Below are positions 13,805 to 43,724 of a stretch of 43,724 nucleotides of DNA, piece by piece. The stretch's first letter is position 1; each line of letters starts with the position of its first letter. Source of the DNA: Bacteroidales bacterium (GTDB taxonomy: Bacteria; Bacteroidota; Bacteroidia; Bacteroidales; UBA7960); assembly GCA_046484145.1 (NCBI GenBank), contig JAWOBS010000285.1, positions 1-43,724 of the forward strand, written 5' to 3'. The notes beneath the pieces were generated by a model, which saw only the letters and a program-made list of their open reading frames with translations, did not search any database and was not told the origin of the DNA. Position numbers and translations under genes: made by a program.

Positions 13805-13806
13805 TT

Positions 13807-20092: not shown

Positions 20093-20151
20093 ATTTATAT
20101 ATTTATTAAATCATTAATCCGCTACACTTGTTTCCATTCTTTACAAAAGTA

Positions 20152-24828: not shown

Positions 24829-24830
24829 TA

Positions 24831-28673: not shown

Positions 28674-30207
28674 TTTTTTCTTTGCTTTTTAATAACGGCA
28701 ATAAAACGTATGTTAGTAAACCGGCTGCTAAGCCTGCTAAAGTTGCAAAGACCATACTTCCAACCAGATATTGCAAAAGATTTTCTTTTAATCCTGTAAG
28801 ATTCATTTCAATATCTACATTCCAGGATCCATGGCCCAGCACATAACTGCCGGTAACATAGCTTAAATATAATATAAATGGCATTAGCGGCGGAAGGCTT
28901 ATATTTGCAGCTAAGAATACTACTGCTTTCTTTAGCTTAAGAAAATGAGCCAGCAATAATCCTATGGCCAACTGATATCCCCAGATAGGCGTTATTCCCA
29001 TGAAAACGCCAAATCCAATTGAAATAGCAATTATATGATTTGGTGTTTTACTGCAAAGAATGTCTTCTTTGATTATTTGCTTTAGCTTCCTTTTTCTGAA
29101 CTTGCGGATGAGGTTTCTTGGCTTGTAGTATAAAATGGCTAAAAATGTAAAGATGAAATTAAGAATGCTTATCCTTAGGAAATCCTTAAAAGGCCTGAAG
29201 TGTGTAATCCTTTCTTCTTTTGGCGGATAATATACATCTATAGGAATTGTTTCAATTTTAATCCCCTTCCAGGAAGCCCTTACAATAACTTCAAGTTCAT
29301 ATTCATATTTGCTTGAGAAAAACCGCATTTTCTCCAAAATACGCAATGGGTAAAGCCTGTAGCCACTTTGTGTGTCTTTTAGGCTTAGTCCGGTTTGAAA
29401 TTTATACCAGAAATTAGAGAATTTGTTTGCAAAACTACTTTTTCCGGGAATGTTGGAGTCATTTAAAGTCCTGGTGCCAATGATTATTGAATCCGGATGC
29501 TCTTTTATCTTTTCAAGAAATGTGGGTATTTCTTTGGCCAGGTGCTGCCCGTCAGAATCAATTGTAATGGCATATTCATATCCGGATTTTATTGCCTCCG
29601 AAAAACCGCTTTTTAAAGCAATCCCTTTTCCCTTGTTCTTTTTATGATGTAATACTTTTAAATTATTGAATTCCGTTAAGATTTCAGTTGTGTTGTCAGT
29701 GCTGCCATCGTTGACTATTATAATATTGTCAGTGTAGTTTAATACATCATAAATTACAGCTTTTAGTTTGGCGGCATTATTATAGGTTGGGATTATTATG
29801 CAATAATTTACAGGCTGTAAATCTAAATTGTCAGTGTTTTTTTTTTTAAGATATTCACTTTTTAATTTTAGAAAGTTTGTTTCATCAGAGAAAATATGTC
29901 CCGCGACTTTCATAGTACCTTCCCCGTTACTTTCGTGTGTAATTTTTACAGTAAGATTATTGTCCTTTTTGGGATTAATGAGAGAGAGAAATTTAATTTC
30001 CCGGGCAGACAATAGCATATAGTTATTATTAGTTTCTTTTTCTAAAATTTCTTTAATGATTTGAACCTGGCAAACGCCCGGCACAACAGGTATTGATGGG
30101 AAATGGCCTTTGAAAATAGAATGTTCTTTATTGAAAGTAATCTCTGCAATTATTTCACCCTCAGCCTTGTGCGTAACAATATATGTGTAAAAATCTTTAT
30201 AAAGCAT
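28666..30207 (-). CDS. tri-domain fusion: FabZ/FabA-like hotdog dehydratase + family 2 glycosyltransferase + DUF2062-like membrane domain
   Basis: 513 aa. aa 1 to about 120: FKGHFPSIPVVPGVCQVQ (FabZ-type motif). aa about 135-350: GT2 (YCIIIPTYNNAAKL, IVNDGSTDNT, AITIDSDGQH). aa about 385-513: four hydrophobic helices (GFGVFMGITPIWGYQ...), as in DUF2062. Confidence 0.82.
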   Translation of the reverse strand: MLYKDFYTYIVTHKAEGEIIAEITFNKEHSIFKGHFPSIPVVPGVCQVQIIKEILEKETNNNYMLLSAREIKFLSLINPKKDNNLTVKITHESNGEGTMKVAGHIFSDETNFLKLKSEYLKKKNTDNLDLQPVNYCIIIPTYNNAAKLKAVIYDVLNYTDNIIIVNDGSTDNTTEILTEFNNLKVLHHKKNKGKGIALKSGFSEAIKSGYEYAITIDSDGQHLAKEIPTFLEKIKEHPDSIIIGTRTLNDSNIPGKSSFANKFSNFWYKFQTGLSLKDTQSGYRLYPLRILEKMRFFSSKYEYELEVIVRASWKGIKIETIPIDVYYPPKEERITHFRPFKDFLRISILNFIFTFLAILYYKPRNLIRKFRKRKLKQIIKEDILCSKTPNHIIAISIGFGVFMGITPIWGYQLAIGLLLAHFLKLKKAVVFLAANISLPPLMPFILYLSYVTGSYVLGHGSWNVDIEMNLTGLKENLLQYLVGSMVFATLAGLAAGLLTYVLLPLLKSKEKNE

Positions 30208-30212
30208 TAATT

Positions 30213-30857
30213 CTAATTAAGTTTAATCAAATCCATTTCAAGTTCTAACTTAACACGATCGTTAATAAATACCATGTTTTGCGGTACTTTATTTAAATCG
30301 TAGTTTAATTTAATAGTTATGTCTCCTTTAAGAACTCTTTGATTAACAATTTTATTAACAAAATTGTTTTCGTTGCAAAAATAATAATAGCGGTTTGAAT
30401 TGTGTCTAATTTTAATAACTTTTATGCTATCATTATTATCAGTATATAATTTATTAGTTCGTTCACTATTCCTGTTTATTAATAGCGGTAAGATACAACT
30501 TTTTAAATTGCTGATAAATATTTTATTTTTTAAAAATTCCTGGGAGTTTATAAGTTCGATATTGTCATTTTTATACTTCATTTCAAGAAGATTAAGGCCA
30601 AATTCTGATAAGAAAACAATATTTGTTGCATCCTCTTCTAAGTTTTTTTTAAAAAGGAATATTCCTGTATGATAATGCTTTCCTATACTTATGCTTGTTT
30701 TATATAGTGCAGTACTATAAGCGTTTTCTAATAAAGGTAAATTAATTGAAATCTCTTCCGGCGAAGGTGATTTTTTTAATCCTTTAATTGGAGAACATGA
30801 GTGTAGAATTGCTATTATACTAATTAGTAACAAAAGTGCTATCCGGAATCTGGGCAT
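30213..30857 (-). CDS. putative lipoprotein of unknown function (positional equivalent of the DUF3261 lipoprotein of aryl-polyene loci)
   Basis: 214 aa. Signal peptide plus Cys (LLLLISIIAILHSCS). No catalytic motifs recognised. The functional label comes from gene context only. Confidence 0.6.
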   Translation of the reverse strand: MPRFRIALLLLISIIAILHSCSPIKGLKKSPSPEEISINLPLLENAYSTALYKTSISIGKHYHTGIFLFKKNLEEDATNIVFLSEFGLNLLEMKYKNDNIELINSQEFLKNKIFISNLKSCILPLLINRNSERTNKLYTDNNDSIKVIKIRHNSNRYYYFCNENNFVNKIVNQRVLKGDITIKLNYDLNKVPQNMVFINDRVKLELEMDLIKLN

Positions 30858-31479
30858 TTATTTCTCTGTTTACAAATGAAATTACTGTATAATCTTTTTC
30901 GTTTTCAATCATAATGACCTTTGAAACAGTAAGGCTTTTCTTGTCAAAATATAACTCGGTTTCGCTTATAACCTGTTTAACCTGGGGGTCTTTAGGAATA
31001 AGCTTCAGTAAATATGTGTTTTGGCTCTCAAAAGCAGTGACTTCAAACTTTCCATCGGCCATGAGGTCTCCTCTTGCAGAGCTTACAATTAAGTTGTTTA
31101 CTTCTTTGAAAACCTGGTTTGAGCTAATATCATAACTTGTAAATTTGCCACTGTCATCTTTTGTAATGAATTTTCCATCATGAATTATAATGATATGACT
31201 AAATGGCTCAGTGTATTCCCACCTTAAACTGTTTTCATCTCTTAACCAAAACTTCCCTTTAGATGTTATTTTTTCATCAATAAAATCCAGATGTTTTTCC
31301 TGGATAAAATCTGAAATAATTGAATTAGTCTTTTTTGAGGTTTCAAGTAATAAAATTTCTAAAGCTTTTATATCTTCAACTTGTGTAAAGCTCTGAGAAG
31401 TTGAGTGCTTGCTGATTAGTAGAAATATTAATGTAAATGCAAAAATTAATTTTCTCATATATGGCTTGTTAATTATCAA
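30820..31479 (-). CDS. LolA-like outer-membrane lipoprotein carrier family protein
   Basis: 219 aa. Signal peptide, then FIQEKHLDFIDEKITSKGKFWLRDENSLRWEYTEPFSHIIIIHDGKF, which fits the LolA pattern (F.Q ... G.f ... lrWeY..P ... dG). Its 3' end overlaps the next gene by 38 nt. Confidence 0.72.
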   Translation of the reverse strand: MIINKPYMRKLIFAFTLIFLLISKHSTSQSFTQVEDIKALEILLLETSKKTNSIISDFIQEKHLDFIDEKITSKGKFWLRDENSLRWEYTEPFSHIIIIHDGKFITKDDSGKFTSYDISSNQVFKEVNNLIVSSARGDLMADGKFEVTAFESQNTYLLKLIPKDPQVKQVISETELYFDKKSLTVSKVIMIENEKDYTVISFVNREINAQIPDSTFVTN

Positions 31480-31496
31480 ATTGTGTCAATAATGTT

Positions 31497-32249
31497 TTAA
31501 TTATTAATAATTTCATCAATCCTGACAGCTTTAAGCCTTTTTTTATCCAATTCTTCTAAAAGGTTTTTTAAAAGTTCTGTTGAATTAATGTCATGTAAAA
31601 GAATTATATCACCACCTCTTAGTCTTTTTTTTATTCTGTTAATAATCTTTTGAGGTTCTTTATTCATTGTATCAAAAGAACGTATACTCCAGCCTATTGT
31701 TGTTAGGTTTAAACTTTTAACTGCTGATGCAATTAAGGGATTTGTTATACCAAAAGGCGGCCTGAAATAAATATTTTCTTTGCCGGTATTTTCTTTGATT
31801 ATTTCTTGAGTTCTCAAAATTTCATTACGTATCCTTTTTGTACTCTTTAGAGGAAACACGTTGCTATGGCTGTAGGAATGATTTCCAATCAGATGGCCTG
31901 ATTTGGCAATCAGCTTAACTAATCCCGGATTTTCTTCAGCTTTTTTACCAATTATAAAAAATGTTGCTTTTACGTTATAATTGTCTAATACATTTAGAAT
32001 CTTCAATGTTTTATCAGGATCCGGGCCATCATCAAAAGTAATTGCAACTTTGTTTTTGTCGCTTTTGTTTTTGCATATTGTCCTGAGATAGAATTGAGAG
32101 TTAATATCAACAGATGCCCATGTGAGAATAATAATAAACAACAATGTAGTACTACTGCCAAATATAAACTTTAAGCTTATGTCAATTGGTAGTAGAAAGA
32201 TTATAATTATGGCAATTATATATATAATGCTTGCAGCTAATAATTTCAA
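31497..32249 (-). CDS. membrane-anchored polysaccharide deacetylase (NodB homology domain)
   Basis: 250 aa. Two N-terminal TM helices, then NodB motifs VAITFDDGPD and GNHSYSHSN. Confidence 0.85.
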   Translation of the reverse strand: MKLLAASIIYIIAIIIIFLLPIDISLKFIFGSSTTLLFIIILTWASVDINSQFYLRTICKNKSDKNKVAITFDDGPDPDKTLKILNVLDNYNVKATFFIIGKKAEENPGLVKLIAKSGHLIGNHSYSHSNVFPLKSTKRIRNEILRTQEIIKENTGKENIYFRPPFGITNPLIASAVKSLNLTTIGWSIRSFDTMNKEPQKIINRIKKRLRGGDIILLHDINSTELLKNLLEELDKKRLKAVRIDEIINN

Positions 32250-32271
32250 TATCAGACAATTATTACAGATG

Positions 32272-33495
32272 TTATTTTATAAACCTGGTAACTATTAAGG
32301 TAGAATTTGTTCCACCAAAGCCAAAAGAGTTTGATAGAAATTTATTGATTTTATGTTCAGTTGTTTCCGGGATAATATTCAGATTTCTTACAGCATCATC
32401 GGGGACATTAAAATTGATGTTAGGTGCAATAAATGAGTTTTGCATCATTATAAGTGAATAAATGATTTCACTGGCACCACCCATCCACATTTCATGGCCG
32501 GTCATTGATTTTGTAGAGCTGATAGGAACTTTGTTCTCACCAAAAATCAGATCCAAAGCTTTACCTTCAAATTCGTCGCCAACAGGAGTTGAGGTAGCAT
32601 GGGCGTTAACATAATCAATATCCTTAGCTTTAAGATTAGCAGATTTCAGACATCTTTCAATAGAATTTACAGGTCCTTCAACATTAGGAACAGATATATG
32701 ATCTCCGTTGGAAGAGAAGCCGTAGCCTACTATTTCACCTAATATGGGAGCACCTCTTTTTTGAGCAGATTCCAGGCTCTCAACAACAACTGTAGCTGCA
32801 CCACCGCTTGGTACAAGTCCGTCGCGGGTTTTGTCAAATGGCCTCGATGCCTTTTCAGGTTCTGCTTCCCGTGTGGAGAAAGCACTTAAACCATCAAAAC
32901 TACCCATTGATTCAGCATTTACCTCCTGGCCTCCACCGCAAATAATAATATCTTGCTGGCCGTGTCCTATAAGAAAAAACGCGAGCCCTATAGCATGAGA
33001 ACTACTTGCGCATGCACCACTAATGGTGAAATTTATACCTTTTAATTTCAAGATAACAGAAAGATTCATTGTTATCGTTGAATTCATGGATTGAAAGATC
33101 GAACCCGAACCGATCAGAGTAGTATCTTTCTTTTCTCGTACAATATCAATAGCATTAATAACAGGAATTGAAGAACTATCATTTCCGTAAATTATGCCTA
33201 CTTCGTGAGAATTAAGAAAATCCTGATCAATTTTTGCATTTTGCAGTGCCTCCATTGTAGCCACGTAAGAATACTCACCCTGCTCAGCCATGCCTATTCT
33301 TGATCGGCGCGACAATAATTTTTTTAAATCCGGCCTTTCAATAATGCCTGTGAGTGATGAGCGAAAGCCAAGCTCTTTGCGCCTGGGGTCAATGCCAATG
33401 CCGGAACGCCCTATATATAATGATTCTTTTACTTCTTCGAGGTTTTTTCCAATTGTGGAATAAATACCCATTCCTGTAATAACAACTCTTCTCAT
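32272..33495 (-). CDS. beta-ketoacyl-ACP synthase (FabF/FabB-type elongating KS)
   Basis: 407 aa. Active-site Cys in ISGACASSSHAIG, His in NAHATSTPVGD, and His in KSMTGHEMWMGG (C-H-H triad). Ends GFGGTNSTLIV. Confidence 0.92.
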   Translation of the reverse strand: MRRVVITGMGIYSTIGKNLEEVKESLYIGRSGIGIDPRRKELGFRSSLTGIIERPDLKKLLSRRSRIGMAEQGEYSYVATMEALQNAKIDQDFLNSHEVGIIYGNDSSSIPVINAIDIVREKKDTTLIGSGSIFQSMNSTITMNLSVILKLKGINFTISGACASSSHAIGLAFFLIGHGQQDIIICGGGQEVNAESMGSFDGLSAFSTREAEPEKASRPFDKTRDGLVPSGGAATVVVESLESAQKRGAPILGEIVGYGFSSNGDHISVPNVEGPVNSIERCLKSANLKAKDIDYVNAHATSTPVGDEFEGKALDLIFGENKVPISSTKSMTGHEMWMGGASEIIYSLIMMQNSFIAPNINFNVPDDAVRNLNIIPETTEHKINKFLSNSFGFGGTNSTLIVTRFIK

Positions 33496-33514
33496 AATTA
33501 GTTAAAAAATTTAA

Positions 33515-34246
33515 TTAACTGTACATTCCTCCATTAACTGATATCACTTCTCCGGTGATGTATGAAGCTTTGCCTGAAGCTAAAAATGCAACTACTTCTG
33601 CTACTTCTTCTGATTCACCAAACCTGTTTAAAGGTATTAAAGGTTTTAACTGATTTTCATCTAAATTGTTCGTCATATCTGTTTTTATAAAACCGGGGGC
33701 AACTGCATTTACAGTCACTTTCTTTTTACCTACTTCTTGTGCTAATGATTTGGTAGCAGCTATAACAGCACCTTTAGCTGCTGCATAATTAACCTGCCCG
33801 GGTTGGCCCTTTTGACCTGACAAGGAAACTATATTTATAATCCTGCCATTTTTCTTAACAATCATATCCTGCAATAATAGCTTAGTTACATAAAAGAAGC
33901 TGTGTTGATTTGTATTTATTACAGAATTCCACTCCTCGTCAGTCATAAATACCATTAAGTTATCCCTGGTGATTCCTGCATTGTTCACTAAAACTTCAAT
34001 ATGTTTCTCAGGATTATCTTCTTTCCATTTGCCCAAAATTGACCTTATTTGCTCTGCATCAGAAACGTCAAATTGAATGAGTTCTCCATTGCCATTGTTT
34101 TTTCGTATCTCATCCAAGGTTGATTCCGCTTCTTTTTTACTTGATTTATAGTTTATTAGAACATAAAAACCATCAGCAGCAAGTTTGATGCTTATTGCTT
34201 TGCCAATTCCTCTCGATCCTCCTGTTACTAAAGCGTATTGTGTCAT
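33515..34246 (-). CDS. 3-oxoacyl-ACP reductase (FabG-like SDR)
   Basis: 243 aa. TGGSRGIGKA cofactor motif, NNAG, and catalytic YAAAKGA (YxxxK). Confidence 0.92.
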   Translation of the reverse strand: MTQYALVTGGSRGIGKAISIKLAADGFYVLINYKSSKKEAESTLDEIRKNNGNGELIQFDVSDAEQIRSILGKWKEDNPEKHIEVLVNNAGITRDNLMVFMTDEEWNSVINTNQHSFFYVTKLLLQDMIVKKNGRIINIVSLSGQKGQPGQVNYAAAKGAVIAATKSLAQEVGKKKVTVNAVAPGFIKTDMTNNLDENQLKPLIPLNRFGESEEVAEVVAFLASGKASYITGEVISVNGGMYS

Positions 34247-34259
34247 TTTGCAATATTTT

Positions 34260-35813
34260 TTAATGTATCTCGATATTGTTATTAAACAAATAATTACTTA
34301 TTTGTTCAATCTCTTGGTATTTTGGTTTGTCTTCAACAAACTTTGGAGATATTTTTCTCAATTTCTTATAAATGTTCTTTGTTAGTGGGGAAAGCTTATC
34401 AGAGATGTCTAAATAATCAACAGCCTGAATTAAAGCCATAAGTTCAATAGACAAAACCTGGAATGCATTGTCAATAACTCGTTTAGTCATCATTGCAGCA
34501 TTTGTGCCCATACTTACAATATCCTGATTGTCGTTATTAGTAGGAATGCTATGTACATACATGGAATTTGACAATGTTTGATTCTCAGCAACAGTTGAAG
34601 TAGCAGTAAACTGTATCCCTTGCATTCCCAGATTTAAGCCTAATTTCCCCAGATTAACGAATGGAGGAAGCTTTTCATTTATTTTTGAATTACATAGAAA
34701 TGCCAAATGACGTTCTGACAGCATTGATAATTTTGTGATTGCCAATTTTAATTTGTCCATTTCAAGCGAAACATAATCTCCATGGAAATTGCCTCCGTGA
34801 TATACATTTTTTGTTGCTAAGTCAACAATAGGATTGTCACTTACAGAATTCATTTCGTTAATTAAAACATCTTCTGTATTATCAATTGTGTCCAAAACAG
34901 GCCCTAAAACCTGGGGAACGCACCTTAAAGAATAGTATTCCTGCACCTTCCTGTCTACAATATGCTGGTGGCCATTATGTTTGTATTTATCATTATAAAA
35001 ATGCGATTCTCTTCGGTTAATCATCTTGCTGCTTGAGAGTATATCCCTCATATATTTTGCAACTTTTGACTGTCCGTTATGCTTTTTTACTCCATTTAAT
35101 TCTTCCGAAAAATAATCATCAAAGGATTCTACTATTTCGTTTAGTAATGCAGAAGCTGTAATTGACCAGTTTAAAAGATGTTTGGATTTAATCACATTTA
35201 TAAGCCCGATTCCTGTCATAACCGAAGTCCCGTTTATCAGGGATAATCCTTCTCTTAAAACAACTTTGATAGGCTGTAGATTCAGCTCTTCAAACACTTC
35301 CTTTGTAGGCCTTAACTTGTTTTTGTATGTTACCTGTCCTTCGCCAATCATGTTCAGGGATAAATGAGATAACTGGACAAGGTCGCCACTGGCACCAACA
35401 CCACCATGTTCAGGAATAAAGGGATAAACCTCCTTGTTTATCATCTCTTTAAGAAGCTTAACACAGGAAGGATGAATACCCGAAAATCCCTGTATTATCG
35501 AAAGCATTCTGACAAACATAACAGCTTTAACATATAAATCAGGAATTTTTTCACCAACACCCGCTGCATGGCTTCTTATTAAATTATATTGAAGCTCAAC
35601 CTGGTCTTTGTCATCAATTATATATTGAGCCATAGGGCCAAAACCGGTGTTGATTCCGTAAATTACTTTATCCCTGGAAAACTCGACAAGGAAATTGTAA
35701 CTATTTTCTACAAGTTCCAAACTGTTTTTTTCAATATCAAATTGATTGTTGTCTAATACAATAGATTGGAATTCCTCTATAGAAAAATCTTTTTTGGGGG
35801 ATACTTTTATCAC
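34260..35813 (-). CDS. MIO-dependent aromatic amino acid ammonia-lyase; tyrosine ammonia-lyase inferred from context
   Basis: 517 aa. GGVGASGDLVQLSH carries the MIO-forming Ala141-Ser142-Gly143 (nt 35385-35393). NTGFGPMA and YSLRCVPQVLGP blocks of the HAL/PAL/TAL family. First gene of the minus-strand operon; no hut genes nearby. Confidence 0.9.
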   Translation of the reverse strand: MIKVSPKKDFSIEEFQSIVLDNNQFDIEKNSLELVENSYNFLVEFSRDKVIYGINTGFGPMAQYIIDDKDQVELQYNLIRSHAAGVGEKIPDLYVKAVMFVRMLSIIQGFSGIHPSCVKLLKEMINKEVYPFIPEHGGVGASGDLVQLSHLSLNMIGEGQVTYKNKLRPTKEVFEELNLQPIKVVLREGLSLINGTSVMTGIGLINVIKSKHLLNWSITASALLNEIVESFDDYFSEELNGVKKHNGQSKVAKYMRDILSSSKMINRRESHFYNDKYKHNGHQHIVDRKVQEYYSLRCVPQVLGPVLDTIDNTEDVLINEMNSVSDNPIVDLATKNVYHGGNFHGDYVSLEMDKLKLAITKLSMLSERHLAFLCNSKINEKLPPFVNLGKLGLNLGMQGIQFTATSTVAENQTLSNSMYVHSIPTNNDNQDIVSMGTNAAMMTKRVIDNAFQVLSIELMALIQAVDYLDISDKLSPLTKNIYKKLRKISPKFVEDKPKYQEIEQISNYLFNNNIEIH

Positions 35814-35935
35814 GAATTATTATTTTTAGTAATATTTTCTCAAAATCAAGTGTTTGAAGAAAATTAATTAATTTAAAAAAGAATAACACTTAAAATTAAA
35901 AGGTCTGCTAAGATTTTAAACACAAATTAGCCGTG

Positions 35936-35943
35936 CAAATATA
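35936..35943 (-). promoter_or_regulatory. candidate -7 box for the minus-strand biosynthetic operon
   Basis: The minus strand reads TATATTTG (TAnnTTTG), 123 nt upstream of the start at 35813. No good -33 TTTG. A second candidate, TAAATTTG, lies at 36041-36048. Confidence 0.3.
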
Positions 35944-36348
35944 ATATTTTTTAATTTCTTATTGTTAATAGAATTTCTTAATAAAACTAATATTAAATCT
36001 TTTAATGCTTACCCTGAATTTTGCCTTCTGTTAATTAATTCAAATTTACTTTATGTATTGCTTGTTCAATGTTTGTAAAGGGAATGTAAACATGGTATTC
36101 CGGATAGATGTGATATCGAAAAAATCAAAATAATAAGGATAGTGCTTTCCTGATTGTATAGTGTGAAAATATTGAAGTTTAATTTTATCCCGTCTCTTAA
36201 AAAGAAGAAGGTAGTTCCTTGCTTTATGTCAAACAATTAGCATGCTTTTGTGTTGAATTGTATATAAAAATCAAGGTTCTGATAGAATGATAATTCCCGG
36301 ATAAGATTAGTCAAACACAATAATTACAATCATTTAAAAAATTTTTAT

Positions 36349-36735
36349 ATGAAGTACTATATTAGTAAAACAATAGCTGCAAATTTTGATCAAGCGATAT
36401 CGCTGGTTACAGAAGCATTAAAAACAGAAGGTTTTGGTATATTATCCGAAATTGATATTCAACAGAAGTTGAAAGAAAAGCTGGATGTTGATTTTAGAAA
36501 ATACAAAATTTTGGGTGCGTGCAACCCCCCAAATGCATACAAGGCACTTCAACAGGAAGATAAAATTGGCACAATGCTTCCCTGTAATGTAATAGTACAG
36601 GAAACAGGTGAAAATCAAGTGGAAGTTGCAGCCGTTGACCCGGTAATTTCAATGATGGCTGTTGATAATAAACAACTTGCAGAAATTGCCGGCGATATTA
36701 AGGCAAAACTTGAGCGGGTTATTGAATCATTATAA
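36349..36735 (+). CDS. DUF302 domain protein
   Basis: 128 aa. FGILSEIDIQQKL ... YKILGACNPPNAYKAL ... IGTMLPCNVIVQE ... VAAVDP matches the DUF302 pattern. Confidence 0.85.
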   Translation: MKYYISKTIAANFDQAISLVTEALKTEGFGILSEIDIQQKLKEKLDVDFRKYKILGACNPPNAYKALQQEDKIGTMLPCNVIVQETGENQVEVAAVDPVISMMAVDNKQLAEIAGDIKAKLERVIESL

Positions 36736-36970
36736 AAAAAAGGATCTTATGTGGGTTTTTAATGGATTATTTCATTTGAGAACTTAGTCTGATAAATCGT
36801 TTACAACTTTTCAATCCAGGCCAATTACAATAATCACTATGGTTGGGGTGGTGGATTAAGCGTCAGGTTTTAACAATTAACCTATACTGTAAAACTTAAA
36901 TAGCACGCATCTGTTATATCCCTAGTGCTTTAAGTTTAATTAGATTATAAAATTCTTGTCTTAATAATAT

Positions 36971-37003
36971 TTTGTTTTTTTTTGTCAGTTTTTCTTAACT
37001 TTG
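36971..37003 (+). promoter_or_regulatory. candidate Bacteroidota -33/-7 promoter for the plus-strand biosynthetic operon
   Basis: TTTG (36971-36974), a 21-nt spacer, then TAACTTTG (36996-37003). This fits TTTG-N19-21-TAnnTTTG and implies a 5' leader of about 160 nt before the ACP start at 37172. Confidence 0.45.
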
Positions 37004-37171
37004 CAGATTGAAATATATGTATTTAGAGTGCATGCATATTTTGTTCGTTTTTGATTGATTGCCTAATGTTATTAGAATATAGCGAAGAAAATTAATGAAC
37101 ATATTATTAAAAACATTGTTTAATATTGTGCACTTATAATTTGGAAATATTGTTTTAATTCTGTCAGTGTT

Positions 37172-37414
37172 ATGCAAAAAGAAATTATTGTTGACAAGGT
37201 AAATGCTTTTTTAATTGATGAGTTTGAAATTGAAGATGATCAATTATCTCCCAATGCTTTACTAAAAGATGACCTTGGTATAGAAAGCCTTGATTTTGTT
37301 GATATTGCTGTTATTGTTGAAAAAGAGTTTGGTGTTAAAGTTGTTGGAGAGGAAGTAACCAATGTCAGGACTGTCGATGACCTATACAATTATATTTACC
37401 AAAAACTCAACTAG
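37172..37414 (+). CDS. acyl carrier protein (ACP-1)
   Basis: 80 aa. DDLGIESLDFVDIAVIVEKEFGV, with phosphopantetheine-site Ser39 (nt 37286-37288). Confidence 0.9.
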   Translation: MQKEIIVDKVNAFLIDEFEIEDDQLSPNALLKDDLGIESLDFVDIAVIVEKEFGVKVVGEEVTNVRTVDDLYNYIYQKLN

Positions 37415-37419
37415 AATTA

Positions 37420-38313
37420 ATGGCTTCATGGAGTGGAAAAACCAAAGGAGGAACATTAGGTTATAGAATTTTTATTTTTCTATTAAAATACTTTAATATA
37501 AGAGTTGCATATTTTGTTCTTTTTTTTGTTGCTTCATGGTTTTATCTGTTCATTAAGAAAGAAGGTATTTATTTTTATTTCAGGAAAATTCTTAACTATT
37601 CTGCCGCCAAAACTCAATTGAGTATTTGGCGTAATTTTTATATATTCGGGCAAGTACTTCTCGTTAGAATTGCTATTGCAGCAGGTTTTTCAAAAAAATT
37701 TACATTTAATTTTGAAGGTGAACATTATCTTCATGAAATAGCTGATAAAAAAACCGGCGGTGTTCTTATTGGCGCCCATATTGGAAATTGGGAAATAGCA
37801 GGCAAGCTGCTGGAAAGAATTGATGCAAATATAAATATCCTGATGTATGATGGTGAACAAGAGTATATTAAGGAATTATTATCGTCAGTTATGCAGGAGT
37901 ACAGAATTAAAATAATCTACATAAAAGAGAATGATAATTCCTACCTTTTTGAAATAGCTGAAGCCTTAAAAAGAAAAGATATTATTGCAATGCACGGTGA
38001 CAGGTTTTTGCCGGGTACAAATAATATTGAAAAAACATTTATGGGCCATAAAGCGAAATTTCCAACAGGCCCGTTTTATCTTGCCAGTAAATATAATGTC
38101 CCTGTTATATATGTTTCGGCAATGAAAGAAAAACCTACTCATTATCATTTCTATGCTACCGAACCAAAATATTACAAATACCCTGCAAATCTTAAAACTA
38201 GAAGGAATGAAATAAGTGTCATGATGGACGATTATATTGAAGTCATGGAAAGCATGATCAAAAAGTATCCACTTCAGTGGTTTAATTATTATCAATTCTG
38301 GAAAAAAAATTAA
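37420..38313 (+). CDS. LpxL/HtrB-like lysophospholipid (lipid A-type) acyltransferase
   Basis: 297 aa. N-terminal TM helices, GAHIGNWE (H-x4-E acyltransferase motif of the LpxL family), and HGDRF. Starts 5 nt after ACP-1. Confidence 0.78.
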   Translation: MASWSGKTKGGTLGYRIFIFLLKYFNIRVAYFVLFFVASWFYLFIKKEGIYFYFRKILNYSAAKTQLSIWRNFYIFGQVLLVRIAIAAGFSKKFTFNFEGEHYLHEIADKKTGGVLIGAHIGNWEIAGKLLERIDANINILMYDGEQEYIKELLSSVMQEYRIKIIYIKENDNSYLFEIAEALKRKDIIAMHGDRFLPGTNNIEKTFMGHKAKFPTGPFYLASKYNVPVIYVSAMKEKPTHYHFYATEPKYYKYPANLKTRRNEISVMMDDYIEVMESMIKKYPLQWFNYYQFWKKN

Positions 38314-38326
38314 ATATACAAAGCAA

Positions 38327-39394
38327 ATGAAAAATTACGGATCAGATGAAAAATCAGCAGTGCAGGCTAAATTTGATGCTCAAAAAATTGCCTTTGCACC
38401 AATAATGTTTCAGGCTGCAAAGTCTCTTAGAAATTTAGGCATTTTAGAAACACTTGAAAAAAACAGGAAACAAGGATTAACAATTGAAGATGTTGCAAAA
38501 AATTGCAGTGTACCGGTATATGGAGTTAAAGTTTTGCTGGAAGCTGCTATTAGCCTCGAAATGGTTTTTGTTAAAGACGATAAGTTCTTTTTGTCTAAAA
38601 CCGGTTGGTTTATTCTTAATGATGACCTGACTAAGGTAAATATGGACTTTACCAATGATGTTAATTACCTTGGTTTTCATGAGCTTGAAGAATCTATTAT
38701 AAACGAAAAGCCGGAAGGTCTTAAAGTTTTTGGAGAATGGGATACTGTTTATGAAGCTCTTTCAAAATTGCCTGAAAAGGTCAGAAAAAGCTGGTTTGCT
38801 TTTGACCATTATTATTCTGATATAGCTTTCCCTGAAGTTTTACCTCTTGTTTTCGGAAATAAACCTTCCAAAGTTCTTGATGTTGGAGGAAATACCGGGA
38901 AGTTTTCAATTAAGTGCTGTGAATATGATCCGGATGTTAAAGTTACTATTCTTGATTTGCCCGGACAATTAAATGATGCATATAAGAATATTGAAAAGAA
39001 AGGATTTTCAGATAGAATCGACGGACATGGAATGAATCTTCTTGACCCATCTAAACCATTCCCTAAAGGATATGATGCAGTTTGGATGAGCCAGTTTTTA
39101 GATTGTTTTTCTCAGGAGGATATTTTGCATCTAATCTCAAGGGCAAAAGATGCTCTTAATGAAAATGGCGCATTGTATATCCTGGAAACATTCTGGGATA
39201 AACAAAAATATGATGCTGCAATGTATAGCTTACATGCAACATCTCTTTATTTTACTTGTATAGCTAACGGATGTAGCCAGATGTATCATTCAGATGATAT
39301 GTATAAATTGGTTGATAAAGCCGGTATGTTTGTTGAAAAAACTATCGATAATATTGGAGTTAGCCATACTTTATTTATTTGTAAACCAAAATAA
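38327..39394 (+). CDS. SAM-dependent O-methyltransferase (winged-helix dimerisation domain + class I MTase)
   Basis: 355 aa. N-terminal HTH-like dimerisation region, then SAM motif I VLDVGGNTGKFS and the acidic loop ILDLP, as in small-molecule OMTs. Confidence 0.82.
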   Translation: MKNYGSDEKSAVQAKFDAQKIAFAPIMFQAAKSLRNLGILETLEKNRKQGLTIEDVAKNCSVPVYGVKVLLEAAISLEMVFVKDDKFFLSKTGWFILNDDLTKVNMDFTNDVNYLGFHELEESIINEKPEGLKVFGEWDTVYEALSKLPEKVRKSWFAFDHYYSDIAFPEVLPLVFGNKPSKVLDVGGNTGKFSIKCCEYDPDVKVTILDLPGQLNDAYKNIEKKGFSDRIDGHGMNLLDPSKPFPKGYDAVWMSQFLDCFSQEDILHLISRAKDALNENGALYILETFWDKQKYDAAMYSLHATSLYFTCIANGCSQMYHSDDMYKLVDKAGMFVEKTIDNIGVSHTLFICKPK

Positions 39395-39400
39395 ACAAAT

Positions 39401-39820
39401 ATGCTCGCTGCTGCAGAAGAAATACTGAAATATATTCCACAAAGGCCTCCTTTTGTTTTTATCGATAAGCTGTTTAAAGCTGATGAAGAATCTCTTGTTT
39501 CCGGCTTTTCAATAAAGAAGGATAATCCTTTATTGATAGATAATAAACTCTCAGAAAGCGGGCTTATTGAGAATATTGCTCAAACTGCTGCTGCCGGCAT
39601 AGGATATAAATGTATAGCAAATGGCAAAGCTGTTGTGCCGGGATTTATCGGTGCTGTAAAAAAGCTGAAAGTCAATAGCTTGCCCGAATGTGGCGAAGAA
39701 ATTGTAACTACAGTTAAAGTAGTTAGTGAAGTAATGAATGCAACCATTATTCACGGTGAAGTAGTTTATAATAGTGAAGTTATTGCAGAGTGTGATATGA
39801 ATATCTTTCTCCAGGAATAA
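39401..39820 (+). CDS. hotdog-fold 3-hydroxyacyl-ACP dehydratase (aryl-polyene type)
   Basis: 139 aa. YIPQRPPFVFIDKL, then GLIENIAQTAA, typical of the small FabZ-related dehydratases of aryl-polyene/flexirubin loci. Confidence 0.78.
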   Translation: MLAAAEEILKYIPQRPPFVFIDKLFKADEESLVSGFSIKKDNPLLIDNKLSESGLIENIAQTAAAGIGYKCIANGKAVVPGFIGAVKKLKVNSLPECGEEIVTTVKVVSEVMNATIIHGEVVYNSEVIAECDMNIFLQE

Positions 39821-39870
39821 TAAATGATTATCCGCTTAATTGAAATCTGATGTAATAAATATTTTGTGCC

Positions 39871-40341
39871 ATGAACAGAGTTGTACTTTTTTCAACGAAA
39901 TATGGGAGCACTAAAAGAGTTGCTAAAGATATTGCACGTTTCCTTGATATTGAAAACAATGTCTTTGATGTTGAAAAAGAAATACCTGAACTCACGAACT
40001 TTGACGATATTATTTTGGGTTTCCCCGTTTATGCAGGGAGTACCACAAGAGCTTTCAGGTCTTTTATTAAAAAAAACCGTGATGAAATAATCAATAAGGT
40101 TTCGGGAATTTTTGTTTTATGCTGGGATGATTCAAGACTTAATAATTATATCGAAAATATCTTTCCATCTGAGCTTAGAAGCGATGTTTATATAAAATGT
40201 GTTGGTGGAGAGATTAATCCCAATGATTTATTGGAGGTGGAAAAATCTATTATCTTTAATCTAACCGGGATTGAGAAAAGGACATCATCAATTGATGAAA
40301 AGAAGATAAAAGCATTTGCAGAGAAATTATTGAACAGATAG
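39871..40341 (+). CDS. flavodoxin-domain protein
   Basis: 156 aa. VVLFSTKYGSTKRVAKDIARFL (FMN phosphate-binding loop context) and ILGFPVYAGS. Confidence 0.72.
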   Translation: MNRVVLFSTKYGSTKRVAKDIARFLDIENNVFDVEKEIPELTNFDDIILGFPVYAGSTTRAFRSFIKKNRDEIINKVSGIFVLCWDDSRLNNYIENIFPSELRSDVYIKCVGGEINPNDLLEVEKSIIFNLTGIEKRTSSIDEKKIKAFAEKLLNR

Positions 40342-40431
40342 TTAAATTTTACTGTTCGTGATTTACGAATTGTTTATTATCATTAAATTTGTTTTTTTTA
40401 AGTATTTGTTTACCGAAATCCATTCGAAAAA

Positions 40432-40905
40432 ATGAAGGAAAATGAATTATATGTTGACTTTAAGCCTCAACAAGCTATTTATTACGTTGAAAAAGATGAT
40501 AGCTCTTATGGCCCGATAGTTAGCGGTTCTCAACTTTCTCACGACTATCTGGACGACTTTTATAAAAAGAAAATAGGCCTAGAGAAGGATTTGAGAGATA
40601 AGCTGGCAGATAATAAGATTAGCCCGGTTTATTATTATATGCTTCTGCAAGAGATTGGTGTTGGCGATCTTGCATCAAGGGTAGGTGTTACTAAGAGAAG
40701 GCTTAAGAAGCACTTTAAACCTGAAGTTTTTAATAAATTATCTTTGTCAAAAATTAAAAAATATGCAGAGATTTTTAATGTACCGCTTAGTGCGATGTTT
40801 CAAATTGTCACCGTTAAGGAGGATGATAAAAAGCAACTTAAAATAGAAAACCTAAAGACAAAAAATGATTGCTTTGAATTTTTCAGGATAGGGGTTAAAG
40901 GTTGA
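40432..40905 (+). CDS. hypothetical protein with central XRE-like helix-turn-helix
   Basis: 157 aa. aa about 70-125, IGVGDLASRVGVTKRRLKKHFKPEVFNKLSLSKIKKYAEIFNVPLSAMF, resembles an XRE/Cro-type HTH. The N-terminal 65 aa are unrecognised. The TGA stop is the first unit of the hexamer repeat. Confidence 0.6.
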   Translation: MKENELYVDFKPQQAIYYVEKDDSSYGPIVSGSQLSHDYLDDFYKKKIGLEKDLRDKLADNKISPVYYYMLLQEIGVGDLASRVGVTKRRLKKHFKPEVFNKLSLSKIKKYAEIFNVPLSAMFQIVTVKEDDKKQLKIENLKTKNDCFEFFRIGVKG

Positions 40906-40947
40906 GGTTGAGGTTAAGGTTAAGGTTAAGGTTAAGGTTAAGGTTAA
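40893..40947. repeat. hexanucleotide microsatellite (GGTTRA)n
   Basis: GGTTAA a GGTTGA GGTTGA GGTTAA x6. Eight contiguous perfect-phase units span 40900-40947, with one extra unit at 40893-40898. Read directly from the sequence. Confidence 0.97.
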
Positions 40948-40987
40948 TTGTTAATAATCAATTATATTTTTCTTAATATATTTTACA

Positions 40988-41992
40988 ATGAATAAGGTTA
41001 TTGATTTTAAACATAAAATGGCAGCCCATTGCGAAACGGGAACTTTGACAGCATTGCTTAATTATGGAGGTTTAAATATTACAGAGCCAATGATATTTGG
41101 CATAGCTAACGGGATATTTTTCGGCTATATGGATAGTGATGCTTTTCCATTTCCCACAATAATTGTAAGAAGCAGGCCCGGGCAGGTCAGGAAAAACATT
41201 GCTTCAAGGCTGGGAATTAAGCTTAAGCAGTTTAAATTTAAAAACCGGGAAAAAGGTATTGCAACTTTAGATGAGCTTATTAGTAAAGATATTCCCGTTG
41301 CTGCACAGGTTGATTTTTTCTATATGGATTATATGCCTGATTGGCAAAGAGTACATATCAATGTACATTTTATTATTATTGTTGGGAAAAAGGATGACAA
41401 ATATGTTATTAGTGATAGCTATTTCCCGAAGATTACTGAACTTAATGAAGAATTAATGGAGAAAGCCAGGTGGGCAGGCGGAACTATGGCTCCAAAAGGC
41501 TTTTTATATTATCCTGAAAAGATACCTGCAGAAATTGACCTGAAGAAGCCAATAATAAAAGGAATAAAAACAGCATGCAGAAATATGATAGGCCTGCCTG
41601 TGCCTTTTATTGGCGTGAAAGGTATTTATAAATTTGCAAATAAAGTTAAGGAATGGCCGACAATTGCCCGCGACCAGGAGCATCTTTCTCATGAAATAAT
41701 GAAAATTAATGTTTTACTTGAAGATCAAGGTACAGGCGGCGCCGGATTTAGGTTTATGTATGCGTCTTTTCTGCAACAAGCCTCTGAGGTTCTAAACAAC
41801 AATGACCTGGCTGATATGTCAAAAAGAATGATGATTAATGGTGACGAGTGGAGAAATATTTCTTACTTTGCAGCTAAAATTGGAAAAAACAGAGATCTTG
41901 GAAAAGAGCGTCTTGAAGAACTTAGTGAACTTATCAAAAAAAGAGGCGATGAGGAGAAATCTTTTTTTACTGAATTAAAAAAAATGGTGTAA
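40988..41992 (+). CDS. BtrH N-terminal-like / DUF4872-like protein (papain/C39-like fold, putative ACP-dependent acyltransferase)
   Basis: 334 aa. N-terminal MAAHCETGTLTALLNYGG, with a Cys positioned as I recall for BtrH_N domains. Later blocks INVHFIIIVG and ISDSYF. The call comes from recollected motifs plus adjacency to an ACP, so it needs an HMM check. Confidence 0.68.
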   Translation: MNKVIDFKHKMAAHCETGTLTALLNYGGLNITEPMIFGIANGIFFGYMDSDAFPFPTIIVRSRPGQVRKNIASRLGIKLKQFKFKNREKGIATLDELISKDIPVAAQVDFFYMDYMPDWQRVHINVHFIIIVGKKDDKYVISDSYFPKITELNEELMEKARWAGGTMAPKGFLYYPEKIPAEIDLKKPIIKGIKTACRNMIGLPVPFIGVKGIYKFANKVKEWPTIARDQEHLSHEIMKINVLLEDQGTGGAGFRFMYASFLQQASEVLNNNDLADMSKRMMINGDEWRNISYFAAKIGKNRDLGKERLEELSELIKKRGDEEKSFFTELKKMV

Positions 41993-42013
41993 CAGTTAAA
42001 TTATATATCTGAA

Positions 42014-42301
42014 ATGACAGCTGAAGAAAAGAAAAAACTAAAAAGGGAGATTAAAGAGTTAATTATTGAAAAACTAAAAATCACTCATGTAACTGCTGAT
42101 GAGGTGCCTGATGATGCACCCTTGTTCGGGCAAGATAACCCTCTTGGCCTGGATTCAATTGATGCTATTGAAATAATATTGGCGTTACAACAAACATATA
42201 ATGTTAGAATTGCTGATCAAAACCTTGCAAGGGTTATTCTTGAATCAGTTGATACTATTGCTGATTTCCTTGAAAAAGAAATGGTTCAGCAAGATCAATA
42301 G
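42014..42301 (+). CDS. acyl carrier protein (ACP-2)
   Basis: 95 aa. PLGLDSIDAIEIILALQ, with Ser48 (nt 42155-42157). Confidence 0.88.
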   Translation: MTAEEKKKLKREIKELIIEKLKITHVTADEVPDDAPLFGQDNPLGLDSIDAIEIILALQQTYNVRIADQNLARVILESVDTIADFLEKEMVQQDQ

Positions 42302-42309
42302 TTTTTTGT

Positions 42310-43389
42310 ATGCAACACTCTTACTTACTAAGTGTTATCTCTTTTGGTAATTTATGTAGTTTGATTATCAGAAATAGAGGGGTGTCTTTCAAGTATCTTG
42401 GCAGATTTCTCTTTCTTCTTCAGGGGAGTTTATGGTCTTCCCTTTTTAATATTATTGAAAAGTTAAAAGGCAAAGACAAGTCGCTTAAAAATAACTTTTC
42501 CAATGGACCGGTTTTTATTGTTGGGCACTGGAGGACAGGTAGTACTTTTTTGCACCAGCTTCTTTCTATAGACAAACAGTTTGTCACTCCCAGCGTTGTC
42601 CAGGTTTCTGTACCTGAAAGTTTTCCTGTGTCTCAAAAATATTTTAGAAAAATAATGTCTAAGGTTATTGATGATAAAAGGCCAATGGATAATGTTAAAT
42701 TAGGCCCTGACGAACCACAGGAAGATGAGTATGCAATCGTTAAAATGATAAAAAATACACCCCTGGAAAAACTGTTTTTTCGCAGAAAAAAAACTGACTT
42801 TATTGATGACCTTAGAAATGCTGTGCAAATTGAAAAGATATCAAAGTCATGGAAAGATACTTTTAGTAAGTTTGTTGCACGTCTTACATATAGCAATAAA
42901 AATGCAATACCATTGCTGAAGAACCCGTTTCATTCTTTTAGAATAAAGGAGATTTTAGAGATTTATCCAAATGCTAAGTTTATTCATATATATCGTGACC
43001 CCGTTAATGTAATTCCTTCCACCATAAGGATGTGGAATATTGTCGGGAAACAGAATTTACTTGCAGGAAAGTGGAAAGATGTATCATCCGAAAGTGCTGC
43101 CACAATGTTTAATTTTCTGTGGCAAGAGTTGAAAGAAGGAACTAAGCTTTGTAATGAAAATAATTTTACAGAAATTAGTTTTGAAAAACTTGAAAATGAC
43201 CCTGTTACAACTGTGAAAGATATATATAATAAACTTAATCTGGATTTTTCTGTTGGTTTTGATAATGAGCTTAATGAATATTTGTTAAGCCTCAGGTCTT
43301 ATAAAAAAAATGAATATACACTTGATGAAGATTCAGTCATGTATATAAAAACAGCTTGTGCTGATTTTATTCAGACTTATAATTATTGA
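42310..43389 (+). CDS. PAPS-dependent sulfotransferase family protein
   Basis: 359 aa. 5'-PSB loop VGHWRTGSTFLHQLL and 3'-PB region IHIYRDPVNVIPSTIRMW. Starts 8 nt after ACP-2. Confidence 0.85.
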   Translation: MQHSYLLSVISFGNLCSLIIRNRGVSFKYLGRFLFLLQGSLWSSLFNIIEKLKGKDKSLKNNFSNGPVFIVGHWRTGSTFLHQLLSIDKQFVTPSVVQVSVPESFPVSQKYFRKIMSKVIDDKRPMDNVKLGPDEPQEDEYAIVKMIKNTPLEKLFFRRKKTDFIDDLRNAVQIEKISKSWKDTFSKFVARLTYSNKNAIPLLKNPFHSFRIKEILEIYPNAKFIHIYRDPVNVIPSTIRMWNIVGKQNLLAGKWKDVSSESAATMFNFLWQELKEGTKLCNENNFTEISFEKLENDPVTTVKDIYNKLNLDFSVGFDNELNEYLLSLRSYKKNEYTLDEDSVMYIKTACADFIQTYNY

Positions 43390-43410
43390 TAAATTCTAAT
43401 TGCTTTTGTT

Positions 43411-43724
43411 ATGAAATTTAAACTTATATATCCCAAATGGCCAAAGCTTGAAAGGCAAACAACCTTTAACTTGCCTCCGCACGGGCCTGTTGTTATGGCT
43501 GCTGAAATACCTGATTATGTTGAAGTTGATTTTGTTGATGAAAATGTTGAGCCGCTTATAATTAAAGATGATGCAGATTTTGTTGGAATTTCTGTGATGC
43601 TTACTACACAGATTAAAAGGGGTTGGGAAATCGCAGATCAATACAGAAAAATGGGTAAAAAGGTAATCTTTGGAGGCATTTCAGCTATGTTGCATGCAGA
43701 GGAAACTCTTGAACATGCTGATAG
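43411..43724 (+). CDS. B12-binding-domain radical SAM protein, 5' fragment (continues beyond the window)
   Basis: From the ATG at 43411 the frame is open to the window end. MKFKLIYPKWPKLERQTTFNLPPHGPVVMAAEIPDYVEVDFVDENVEPLIIKDDADFVGISVMLTTQIKRGWEIADQYRKMGKKVIFGGISAMLHAEE fits the N-terminal cobalamin-binding-like domain of class B radical SAM enzymes. Absent from the ORF track because it has no stop. Confidence 0.8.
   Translation, partial: MKFKLIYPKWPKLERQTTFNLPPHGPVVMAAEIPDYVEVDFVDENVEPLIIKDDADFVGISVMLTTQIKRGWEIADQYRKMGKKVIFGGISAMLHAEETLEHAD

Follow-up and report, generated by a model that had tools for sequence, protein, structure and literature searches.

What do a sulfotransferase and, directly behind it, a radical S-adenosylmethionine (SAM) enzyme contribute to a pigment gene cluster of an uncultured Bacteroidales bacterium? 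The question is raised by the last part (positions 39871-43724) of contig JAWOBS010000285.1, all 43,724 nucleotides (nt) of which, here called the window, were analysed. An original prediction, made from the DNA letters alone, had read this part as a non-canonical sub-module of five co-directional genes. The open reading frame (ORF) listing and a reading of the sequence give six co-directional plus-strand genes, which encode, in order, a flavodoxin-fold protein, a DarG-like protein, DarH, a carrier protein (ACP2), a sulfotransferase and the beginning of the radical SAM enzyme. They form a real, widespread and apparently undescribed variant of the flexirubin/aryl-polyene-lipid cluster family. 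The most likely product, as we infer it, is a sulfated, resorcinol-free aryl-polyene-type outer-membrane lipid, and to this explanation as a whole, cluster and mechanism together, we give a probability of about one half.

A flexirubin-type cluster and its conserved neighbourhood

The location in a pigment locus, which had been read off the letters, is borne out by profile searches. FlxA (822 bits against a cut-off of 700), the aryl-coenzyme A (CoA) ligase FlxY (684 against 520), FlxB (390 against 340), LolA2 (203 against 125) and LolB2 (67 against 60) all pass their NCBIfam cut-offs, and the minus-strand block that encodes them is collinear with Fjoh_1075-1088 of Flavobacterium johnsoniae (Table S5, PMC3992019). 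The block of acyl carrier protein (ACP), acyltransferase, O-methyltransferase and dehydratase genes that had been noted upstream is likewise present, at 37172-39820, by Pfam and NCBIfam matches. Judged by sequence, the genes at 39871-43724 sit within a predicted flexirubin/aryl-polyene-lipid-type cluster, which holds three kinds of gene: a predicted 'dar' accessory set, a gene for a dedicated sulfotransferase right behind that of its ACP, and a putative unit of radical SAM enzyme, p130 (a 130-residue protein) and outer-membrane barrel that extends past the window.

The known flexirubin clusters of F. johnsoniae (Fjoh_1075-1110) and Chitinophaga pinensis (flx and dar loci) share with the window FlxA, FlxB, FlxY, the C45 protein, a CrtD-like reductase, the exporter/acyltransferase, a glycosyltransferase, LolA2/LolB2, a deacetylase, an LpxL-type acyltransferase with an ACP, a FlxJ-like methyltransferase, and DarG/DarH with an ACP nearby. 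Compared with them, the window cluster is without DarA/DarB, ABC transporter and halogenase, and has far fewer ketosynthases; it adds the sulfotransferase, the AprD4-like radical SAM enzyme with p130, a TonB-receptor-like barrel, the flavodoxin and a further B12 radical SAM enzyme encoded downstream. The hosts differ too, being uncultured anaerobe-type Bacteroidales here and aerobic Flavobacteriia and Chitinophagia for the known flexirubin clusters. In C. pinensis, darH (coding for a BtrH-like peptidase) and darG, the pair Cpin_6848/6849, lie directly beside darB/darA (Schöner et al. 2014, PMC3992019); the F. johnsoniae orthologues of darG/darH are Fjoh_1097/1098 (PMC3992019), and a DarG/DarH pair is present, under other letter names, in the arcuflavin cluster of Azoarcus as well. 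The DarG-like protein, DarH and the second ACP are, by homology, predicted members of the known flexirubin/aryl-polyene gene set, so the suggestion that all activities of the module are foreign to the accepted schemes stands only for the sulfotransferase and the radical SAM enzyme. Neither of these is in the F. johnsoniae and C. pinensis cluster tables, which contain no flavodoxin either (PMC3992019), or in the aryl polyene lipid (APEL) scheme.

The APEL cluster of Xenorhabdus doucetiae and Escherichia coli CFT073 has in common with the window two ACPs, an ApeD-like LpxL acyltransferase, an ApeB-like methyltransferase, an ApeH-like ligase, hot-dog dehydratases, a glycosyltransferase, an MMPL exporter and LolA/LolB-like proteins, but is itself without DarG/DarH, sulfotransferase or radical SAM enzyme, and APELs bear phosphate, not sulfate. 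What the APEL pathway yields is not a simple ester but a complex lipid of the outer membrane. In the Xenorhabdus pathway one of the two ACPs, ApeE, holds the aryl polyene and the other, ApeF, the conjugated 3-hydroxy fatty acid, while the LpxL-like acyltransferase and a glycosyltransferase/acyltransferase build the N-acetylgalactosamine-phosphoglycerol lipid. In the literature library that was searched, no publication connects flexirubins or aryl polyenes with either a sulfotransferase or a radical SAM enzyme, and the combination of Draconibacterium and flexirubin likewise gave nothing relevant. The module may be called undescribed in this sense; it is at the same time a variant within a known family, and not a system of a new kind.

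A synteny survey ties both enzymes to the cluster by conserved neighbourhood. One genome per GTDB species was scanned with the sulfotransferase as query, which gave 87 confirmed relatives, and the best 80 loci were kept; neighbours were counted by tblastn with the window proteins within the available flanking DNA of each locus. Since it was seeded on the sulfotransferase, the survey shows the companions of this enzyme and not the share of DarH loci that have one. Nearly all 80 loci are from metagenome-assembled genomes (MAGs) of Bacteroidales, assigned to Prolixibacteraceae, Draconibacterium and Rikenellaceae or left unclassified, and sulfotransferase identity is 33-67%. ACP2 is encoded directly upstream of the sulfotransferase in 76 loci, and the other neighbours are DarH (74 loci), DarG (71), the radical SAM enzyme (at least 53), p130 (50), the outer-membrane barrel (49) and FlxY (45). 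Kept as it is in dozens of species whose sulfotransferases have diverged so far, the gene order is far beyond chance.

In the 45 loci with FlxY, its gene is just downstream of that of the sulfotransferase, at a median gap of about 780 nt; flanked by ACP2 on one side and an aryl-CoA ligase on the other, the sulfotransferase is thereby tied to the aryl pathway. The radical SAM unit is found in two arrangements. In 24 loci, of the window type, the sulfotransferase gene is followed by those for radical SAM, p130 and barrel; in 27 the order is C45, radical SAM, p130, barrel, LpxL-acyltransferase, O-methyltransferase and ABC-2 permease, then DarG, DarH, ACP, sulfotransferase, a small outer-membrane protein and FlxY. 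Cluster genes surround the unit in both arrangements, and the radical SAM enzyme is tied to the sulfotransferase less closely than ACP and DarH are. Of the 27 loci that lack a radical SAM gene, most are contigs that end early. As to the hosts, one full module (L033, SACF01000019.1) is in a MAG labelled Alphaproteobacteria, probably through a binning error, and a Myxococcales MAG (L071, CAZEFW010000051.1) has a sulfotransferase of 33% identity beside a ketosynthase, an ACP and FabD, with no DarG/DarH.

DarA and DarB are encoded neither in the window nor in two near-identical contigs that extend it, L001 and L083 (about 54 kb around the cluster), nor in 73 of the 80 related loci, and clustering of all 1418 locus ORFs gave no DarA/DarB family among the conserved neighbours. 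The part of the window at 1-18700 was considered as a hidden site for them and ruled out, as it encodes housekeeping functions (DnaK, a SusC-like protein, AroE, Ffh, FolD, a histidine kinase). In seven loci, called here the L012 type, a distant ketosynthase of the StlD/DarB family is encoded beside darG, at 101-126 bits against cut-offs of 450-550. The region 5' of darG in these loci (L012:320-7903 and six similar ones) encodes, with this ketosynthase, two crotonases, a 4HBT thioesterase, a FabD-like protein, an ACP and two more B12 radical SAM enzymes, a set with which a lipid partner, cyclohexanedione- or resorcinol-like or else branched, might be made anaerobically. What is non-canonical in the window cluster comes down to the predicted sulfotransferase, to the putative radical SAM enzyme with its obligate 130-residue partner and outer-membrane barrel, and to the missing DarA/DarB.

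The enzymes of the module

The flavodoxin, BtrH-like, ACP, sulfotransferase and B12-radical SAM calls, all made from the letters alone, were confirmed as Pfam domains by hidden Markov model search, and the gaps of 21, 8 and 21 nt given for the last four genes are exact: DarH/ACP2 41993-42013, ACP2/sulfotransferase 42302-42309, sulfotransferase/radical SAM 43390-43410.

DarH (40988-41992, plus strand, 334 residues) is a predicted acyl-ACP acyltransferase of the BtrH-type papain fold. It contains PF14399 (BtrH_N, 127 bits) and PF16169 (DUF4872, 156 bits) and passes the equivalog cut-off of NF053550 (326.2 against 300 bits). Residues H14-C15-E16, H123, H127 and D143 are conserved at 97% or more in 71 orthologues and invariant in a subset of 35, and Cys15 (41030-41032) is the putative papain-type nucleophile. 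ACP2 (42014-42301, plus strand, 95 residues; PF00550, PP-binding, 35 bits), the carrier protein paired with DarH, has its phosphopantetheine site at Ser48 (42155-42157), with D47-S48 conserved at 97% or more in 64 orthologues. In butirosin biosynthesis, BtrH shares with DarH the BtrH_N and DUF4872 domains, the conserved N-terminal Cys and a dedicated ACP (BtrI) encoded nearby, and this implies for DarH an acyl transfer from ACP to acceptor. The likeness is at the family level only, as the acceptor here would not be an aminoglycoside and there is no BtrG-like deprotection partner. Exact-protein look-up with the window DarH gave no record, and DarH and DarG profiles found nothing significant in PDB; matches to AziU3/Azi29 (E about 0.4) and to designed repeats were set aside.

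The protein encoded at 40432-40905 (plus strand, 157 residues) had been called XRE-like, which is the least secure of the original calls. A Pfam search with it gave no HTH_3/XRE domain and no other match, and of the original call there remains a marginal resemblance to helix-turn-helix proteins (PRK04140, E 0.006; PDB 3fym, E 0.024). Its scores are under the cut-offs of both DarG models of NCBIfam, at 62.6 against 70 bits for the subfamily NF053536 and 64.7 against 170 bits for the equivalog NF053545, and 'DarG-like' is a putative name given by position beside DarH, a position kept in 71 of the 80 loci.

The product of 42310-43389 (plus strand, 359 residues; PF13469, Sulfotransfer_3, 115 bits) is, by domain and motifs, a predicted Stf-type sulfotransferase dependent on 3'-phosphoadenosine 5'-phosphosulfate (PAPS). 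Both PAPS-binding motifs that had been pointed out, the 5'-phosphosulfate-binding (PSB) GHWRTGST (residues 72-79; loop at 42508-42555) and the 3'-phosphate-binding (PB) R229..P231..P236 S237 (42994-43020), are invariant in 35 orthologues, and the orthogroup has an invariant motif of its own, RPMDNVKxGxDEPQEDEY. No NCBIfam model exists for this family, which counts at least 1,703 sequence clusters, every one derived from metagenomes or MAGs; many orthologues carry the JGI orthology name of Stf3 (omega-hydroxy-beta-dihydromenaquinone-9 sulfotransferase), as an annotation and not a test. In a profile search of PDB the first matches are the mycobacterial Stf9 (2z6v, 4e-16) and Stf1 (2zq5, 3e-14), followed by the sulfotransferase domains of CurM (4gbm, 1e-11) and of olefin synthase (OLS; 4gox, 2e-10), then by tyrosylprotein sulfotransferases. 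The mycobacterial enzymes (Stf1, Stf9, and Stf3 of sulfomenaquinone), whose acceptors are lipids or glycolipids, share the PAPS motifs and the helical N-terminal extension. The reading of the N-terminus as a simple membrane anchor was ruled out, as it aligns with that extension in Stf1. The Stf match is local only (E 1e-14 to 1e-16), and the window enzyme differs in its family-specific motif and in being encoded next to an ACP. CurM and OLS do have the sulfotransferase beside an ACP, in a polyketide or fatty-acid setting, and it is there joined to a thioesterase; the window enzyme is stand-alone, without a thioesterase partner, and matches them more weakly than it does Stf.

The radical SAM gene leaves the window (from ATG 43411 to 43724, plus strand) after 104 of 421 codons, the fragment comprising the Rossmann/B12-binding-type domain (PF02310, 34 bits against a cut-off of 32.1). 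An extension of the contig, as had been proposed, gave the rest: L001 (21 mismatches in 6595 nt) carries the complete gene at L001:6282-7547, together with those for p130 and the barrel, and L083 reaches 10 kb further downstream. The full-length protein scores 37.7 bits with PF02310 and 27.9 with the radical SAM model PF04055, marginally below the cut-off of 29.5; the CX3CX2C motif (C173/C177/C180) is invariant in orthologues, which in the surveyed loci are 61-88%, mostly 72-88%, identical to the window enzyme. Conservation is strong, the best 120 database matches being all at least 73% identical, and none of these is functionally named. No NCBIfam family is above its cut-off, the AprD4 model NF033070 giving 19.1 against 500 bits.

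An AlphaFold2 (AF2) model of the enzyme (pLDDT 90) has AprD4 (6fd2) as its top fold match, with template-modelling (TM) scores of 0.78/0.73 and E 2e-18; the sequence profile likewise ranks 6fd2 first (3e-5), at 16% identity. AprD4 is about the same size and, like the class B methylases MgmA, TsrM and CysS, comprises a Rossmann/B12-type domain at the N-terminus, the radical SAM core and a helical domain at the C-terminus; these cobalamin methylases are themselves significant fold matches to the model, with TM about 0.6. The N-terminal Rossmann domain of AprD4 is not known to bind cobalamin. The model thus places the enzyme nearest to a non-methylating diol dehydratase, and the role of C-methylase that had been proposed for it, in keeping with class B domain architecture, is not secure: C-methylation is conceivable and possible, but would not be the chemistry best supported by the model. 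The modelled resemblance to AprD4 is in turn one of fold only, and in place of an AprD3-like reductase, which is not encoded here, the radical SAM enzyme is paired with p130.

The p130 gene (L001:7553-7945) begins 5 nt 3' of the radical SAM gene, and after it, in the same unit, L001 encodes the TonB-receptor-like outer-membrane barrel. Proteins of the p130 family are about 128-130 residues long, with invariant PSxCG (containing a Cys), NPGT and HxPD motifs; the 1,076 homologues are all annotated as hypothetical, and the gene always comes after a radical SAM gene. No Pfam, NCBIfam or significant PDB sequence match was found for p130, and Foldseek with its AF2 model (pLDDT 82.5) gave nothing better than E 0.04 or TM 0.37; partial resemblances to GNAT proteins were insignificant and were rejected.

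The flavodoxin (39871-40341, plus strand, 156 residues, a short form) matches PF12724 (Flavodoxin_5) with 71 bits against a cut-off of 27, and its identification as HemG was ruled out (31 against 142 bits). It had been counted as a part of the module, which the survey does not support: an orthologue is found in only 7 of the 80 loci, each time in the order dehydratase-flavodoxin-darG. It is best seen as an accessory particular to this lineage, which could plausibly donate electrons to radical SAM enzymes.

Past the barrel, L083 has a gene for a desulfoferrodoxin-like (superoxide-reductase-type) protein (L083:4807-5175), followed by one for a secreted protein of 196 residues; the former is found in the closest relatives of the locus only (L003-L005), and its presence fits an anaerobic host and a role of the pigment in oxidative stress. 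Further on, L083:6137-11326 encodes a second B12 radical SAM enzyme (HpnR/BchE-like, 135 bits), a 231-residue protein, a FabD-like transacylase, an AcpS-type phosphopantetheinyl transferase, a third ACP and a FabF-like ketosynthase, of which the radical SAM enzyme, FabD and ACP recur in 9-10 other loci. The several radical SAM genes, the flavodoxin and the desulfoferrodoxin-like gene in the cluster, together with the sediment and groundwater origins of the MAGs, indicate that the host is probably an anaerobe.

The predicted product and its alternatives

A pathway to a sulfated pigment-lipid could run as follows. FlxA and FlxY would make and activate 4-coumarate, and the ketosynthase, FlxB and the hot-dog dehydratases would lengthen the aryl chain while a carrier protein holds it. 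DarH would take the acyl chain bound to ACP2 onto Cys15 and pass it to a hydroxyl or amino acceptor, which here would not be a dialkylresorcinol. It would probably be an anchor of glycerolipid or aminosugar-lipid type, put together by the glycosyltransferase, the deacetylase and the acyltransferases of LpxL and PlsC type. The sulfotransferase, like the mycobacterial Stf enzymes, would O-sulfate a lipid hydroxyl from PAPS to give an anionic pigment-lipid. The radical SAM enzyme with p130 may perform an O2-independent radical tailoring, either an AprD4-like dehydration/deoxygenation or C-methylation, for which flavodoxin would supply the electrons in this lineage; the MMPL exporter, LolA2/LolB2 and the outer-membrane barrel would deliver the product to the outer membrane. 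A fuller statement is put forward as a tentative proposal: anaerobic Bacteroidales of anoxic habitats (sediment, groundwater and the like) may make an outer-membrane lipid of an undescribed class, a resorcinol-free, flexirubin-like aryl-polyene conjugate that the dedicated Stf-type enzyme O-sulfates and that p130 and the AprD4-like radical SAM enzyme remodel without oxygen. These three proteins would then stand beside DarG/DarH where aerobic flexirubin producers have DarA/DarB.

Several points weigh against a sulfated, resorcinol-free pigment-lipid. The roles of the module members, DarH and DarG included, are deduced from homology. A promoter-like motif stands before darG, and the single operon is putative. 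At least seven loci with complete 10-kb flanks are without the radical SAM gene. The StlD/DarB-like ketosynthase of the seven L012-type loci leaves a resorcinol or cyclohexanedione partner possible for the family, and DarA/DarB could be encoded elsewhere, as C. pinensis has its dar and flx clusters split. Finally, the 'activating' enzymes of CurM/OLS type are matched by the sulfotransferase profile too, so that sulfate could be a leaving group.

This last point is the core of the main rival, which we regard as unlikely and as the one that survives best: an activating sulfotransferase of CurM/OLS type would act on the beta- or another hydroxyl of an ACP2-bound intermediate, and sulfate would leave at elimination or ring closure, the product being sulfur-free. 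The closeness of the ACP2 and sulfotransferase genes, 8 nt apart in the window and adjacent in 76 of 80 loci, agrees with it, as do the significant matches to the CurM and OLS domains and the 3-hydroxyacyl intermediates that aryl-polyene-lipid pathways have on their ACPs. What speaks for a sulfated end product instead is the stronger match to the product-forming mycobacterial Stf enzymes. No alpha/beta-hydrolase thioesterase is found among the conserved neighbours, the 4HBT thioesterase being confined to L012-type loci, and the two hot-dog dehydratases of the cluster already cover dehydration.

The scheme of the original prediction, in which ACP2 carries a separate second acyl unit that is C-methylated by the cobalamin radical SAM enzyme with flavodoxin, transferred by the BtrH-like enzyme and O-sulfated, strikes us as rather improbable as a whole. 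In its favour, the four enzyme classes are all there, side by side; most class B radical SAM enzymes are methylases, with MgmA, TsrM and CysS among the significant fold matches; a second, HpnR/BchE-like, B12 radical SAM gene follows downstream; and the aryl-polyene-lipid pathway does use its second ACP to make a second acyl chain. Against these stand the scarcity of the flavodoxin across loci and the rank of the non-methylating AprD4, first both by structure and by profile, with a TM score well above those of the methylases. In addition, the radical SAM gene can lie apart from the unit of DarH, ACP and sulfotransferase, and FlxY just downstream of ACP2 and sulfotransferase in 45 loci suggests that ACP2 may hold the aryl chain itself.

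There is but a slim chance, in our estimate, that DarA/DarB are encoded elsewhere and the organism still makes an ordinary flexirubin of the dialkylresorcinol kind, which the sulfotransferase and radical SAM enzyme would only decorate, for instance by sulfating a phenol or resorcinol hydroxyl that is free. In all characterised cases DarG/DarH go together with dialkylresorcinol genes, the flx and dar genes of C. pinensis do form two loci, and the distant DarB/StlD-family ketosynthase adjoins darG in seven related loci. That ketosynthase, however, scores far under the cut-offs, DarA/DarB were not found in about 54 kb around the window cluster or in the other 73 loci, and DarG/DarH, which in C. 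pinensis go with DarA/DarB and not with flx, go here with the sulfotransferase. As for a reading of sulfotransferase and radical SAM enzyme as functionally independent neighbours, belonging for example to a separate sulfolipid or cell-envelope pathway, the promoter-like motif ahead of darG and the shifting position of the radical SAM unit relative to the sulfotransferase would allow it, but it is highly improbable given that nearly all of the 80 kept loci share the context (L051, L071 and contigs ending early are the exceptions), that the sulfotransferase sits between ACP2 and FlxY, and that the second arrangement has the radical SAM unit flanked by two cluster genes, those for C45 and the LpxL-acyltransferase.

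Surrounding genes, and the place of the variant

The segment 39871-43724 is the distal end of one putative plus-strand operon that starts at 37172. Its first gene encodes ACP1 (37172-37414; PF00550, 36 bits), which is AcpP-like by its NCBIfam matches. There follow genes for an LpxL/ApeD-type acyltransferase (37420-38313; PF03279, 62 bits), for a FlxJ-like SAM methyltransferase (38327-39394; NF053543, 527 bits, just under the cut-off of 560) with Methyltransf_2 and dimerisation domains, and for a hot-dog (ApeP/FabZ-like) dehydratase (39401-39820), which matches FabZ weakly and, in the identical L001 gene, PF22817 (ApeP-like). The spacers before the flavodoxin gene, darG and darH are wider than those further downstream, at 50, 90 and 82 nt respectively. 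In the second of them, 48 nt 5' of darG, lies TAAATTTG (40384-40391, plus strand), a motif like the Bacteroidetes -7 promoter element that may be an internal promoter ahead of darG; at a motif density of 0.69/kb the chance of one in a 90-nt gap is about 6%, so that this is weak evidence. Scans of 35800-43724 and L001 for terminators and sigma-70 promoters gave counts no higher than in shuffled sequence, with no intergenic terminators. A tandem hexamer, (GGTTRA)x8, covers the darG stop codon (40900-40947, plus strand) and reads in the darG frame as Gly-stop, eight times; its copy number is the same in L001, and the repeat is not present in the 80 related loci.

The core flexirubin-type block (18791-35813, minus strand) encodes, in order, FlxY, a C45 acyltransferase/hydrolase, two CrtD-like flavin adenine dinucleotide (FAD) oxidoreductases, a fusion of MMPL exporter, PlsC-acyltransferase and methyltransferase, a dehydratase-glycosyltransferase, LolB2, LolA2, a deacetylase, one ketosynthase, the reductase FlxB and the tyrosine ammonia-lyase FlxA. 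The fusion protein (24831-28673, minus strand; 1280 residues) joins an MMPL/HAE3 exporter and a PlsC-type acyltransferase to a C-terminal UbiG-like methyltransferase; its F. johnsoniae counterpart is described as exporter and acyltransferase only. As called mechanically, the LolA2 and LolB2 ORFs overlap by 38 nt (30820-30857), and the two CrtD-like and C45 genes overlap by 4-8 nt, which suggests tight translational coupling of a putative minus-strand operon.

Aryl-polyene/flexirubin clusters are among the most widespread families of bacterial gene clusters; to our knowledge, full products have been established for very few organisms, and for no anaerobe. The variant discussed here is abundant: no fewer than 80 species have the module. 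With sulfation and radical SAM tailoring the variant brings to these pigments two chemistries that are outside the published schemes. Should the product indeed be a sulfated pigment-lipid, a new component of the cell envelope would be at hand, one that might serve as a biomarker of anoxic Bacteroidales, and the module would offer a first functional handle on DarG/DarH and on the large orphan family of p130.

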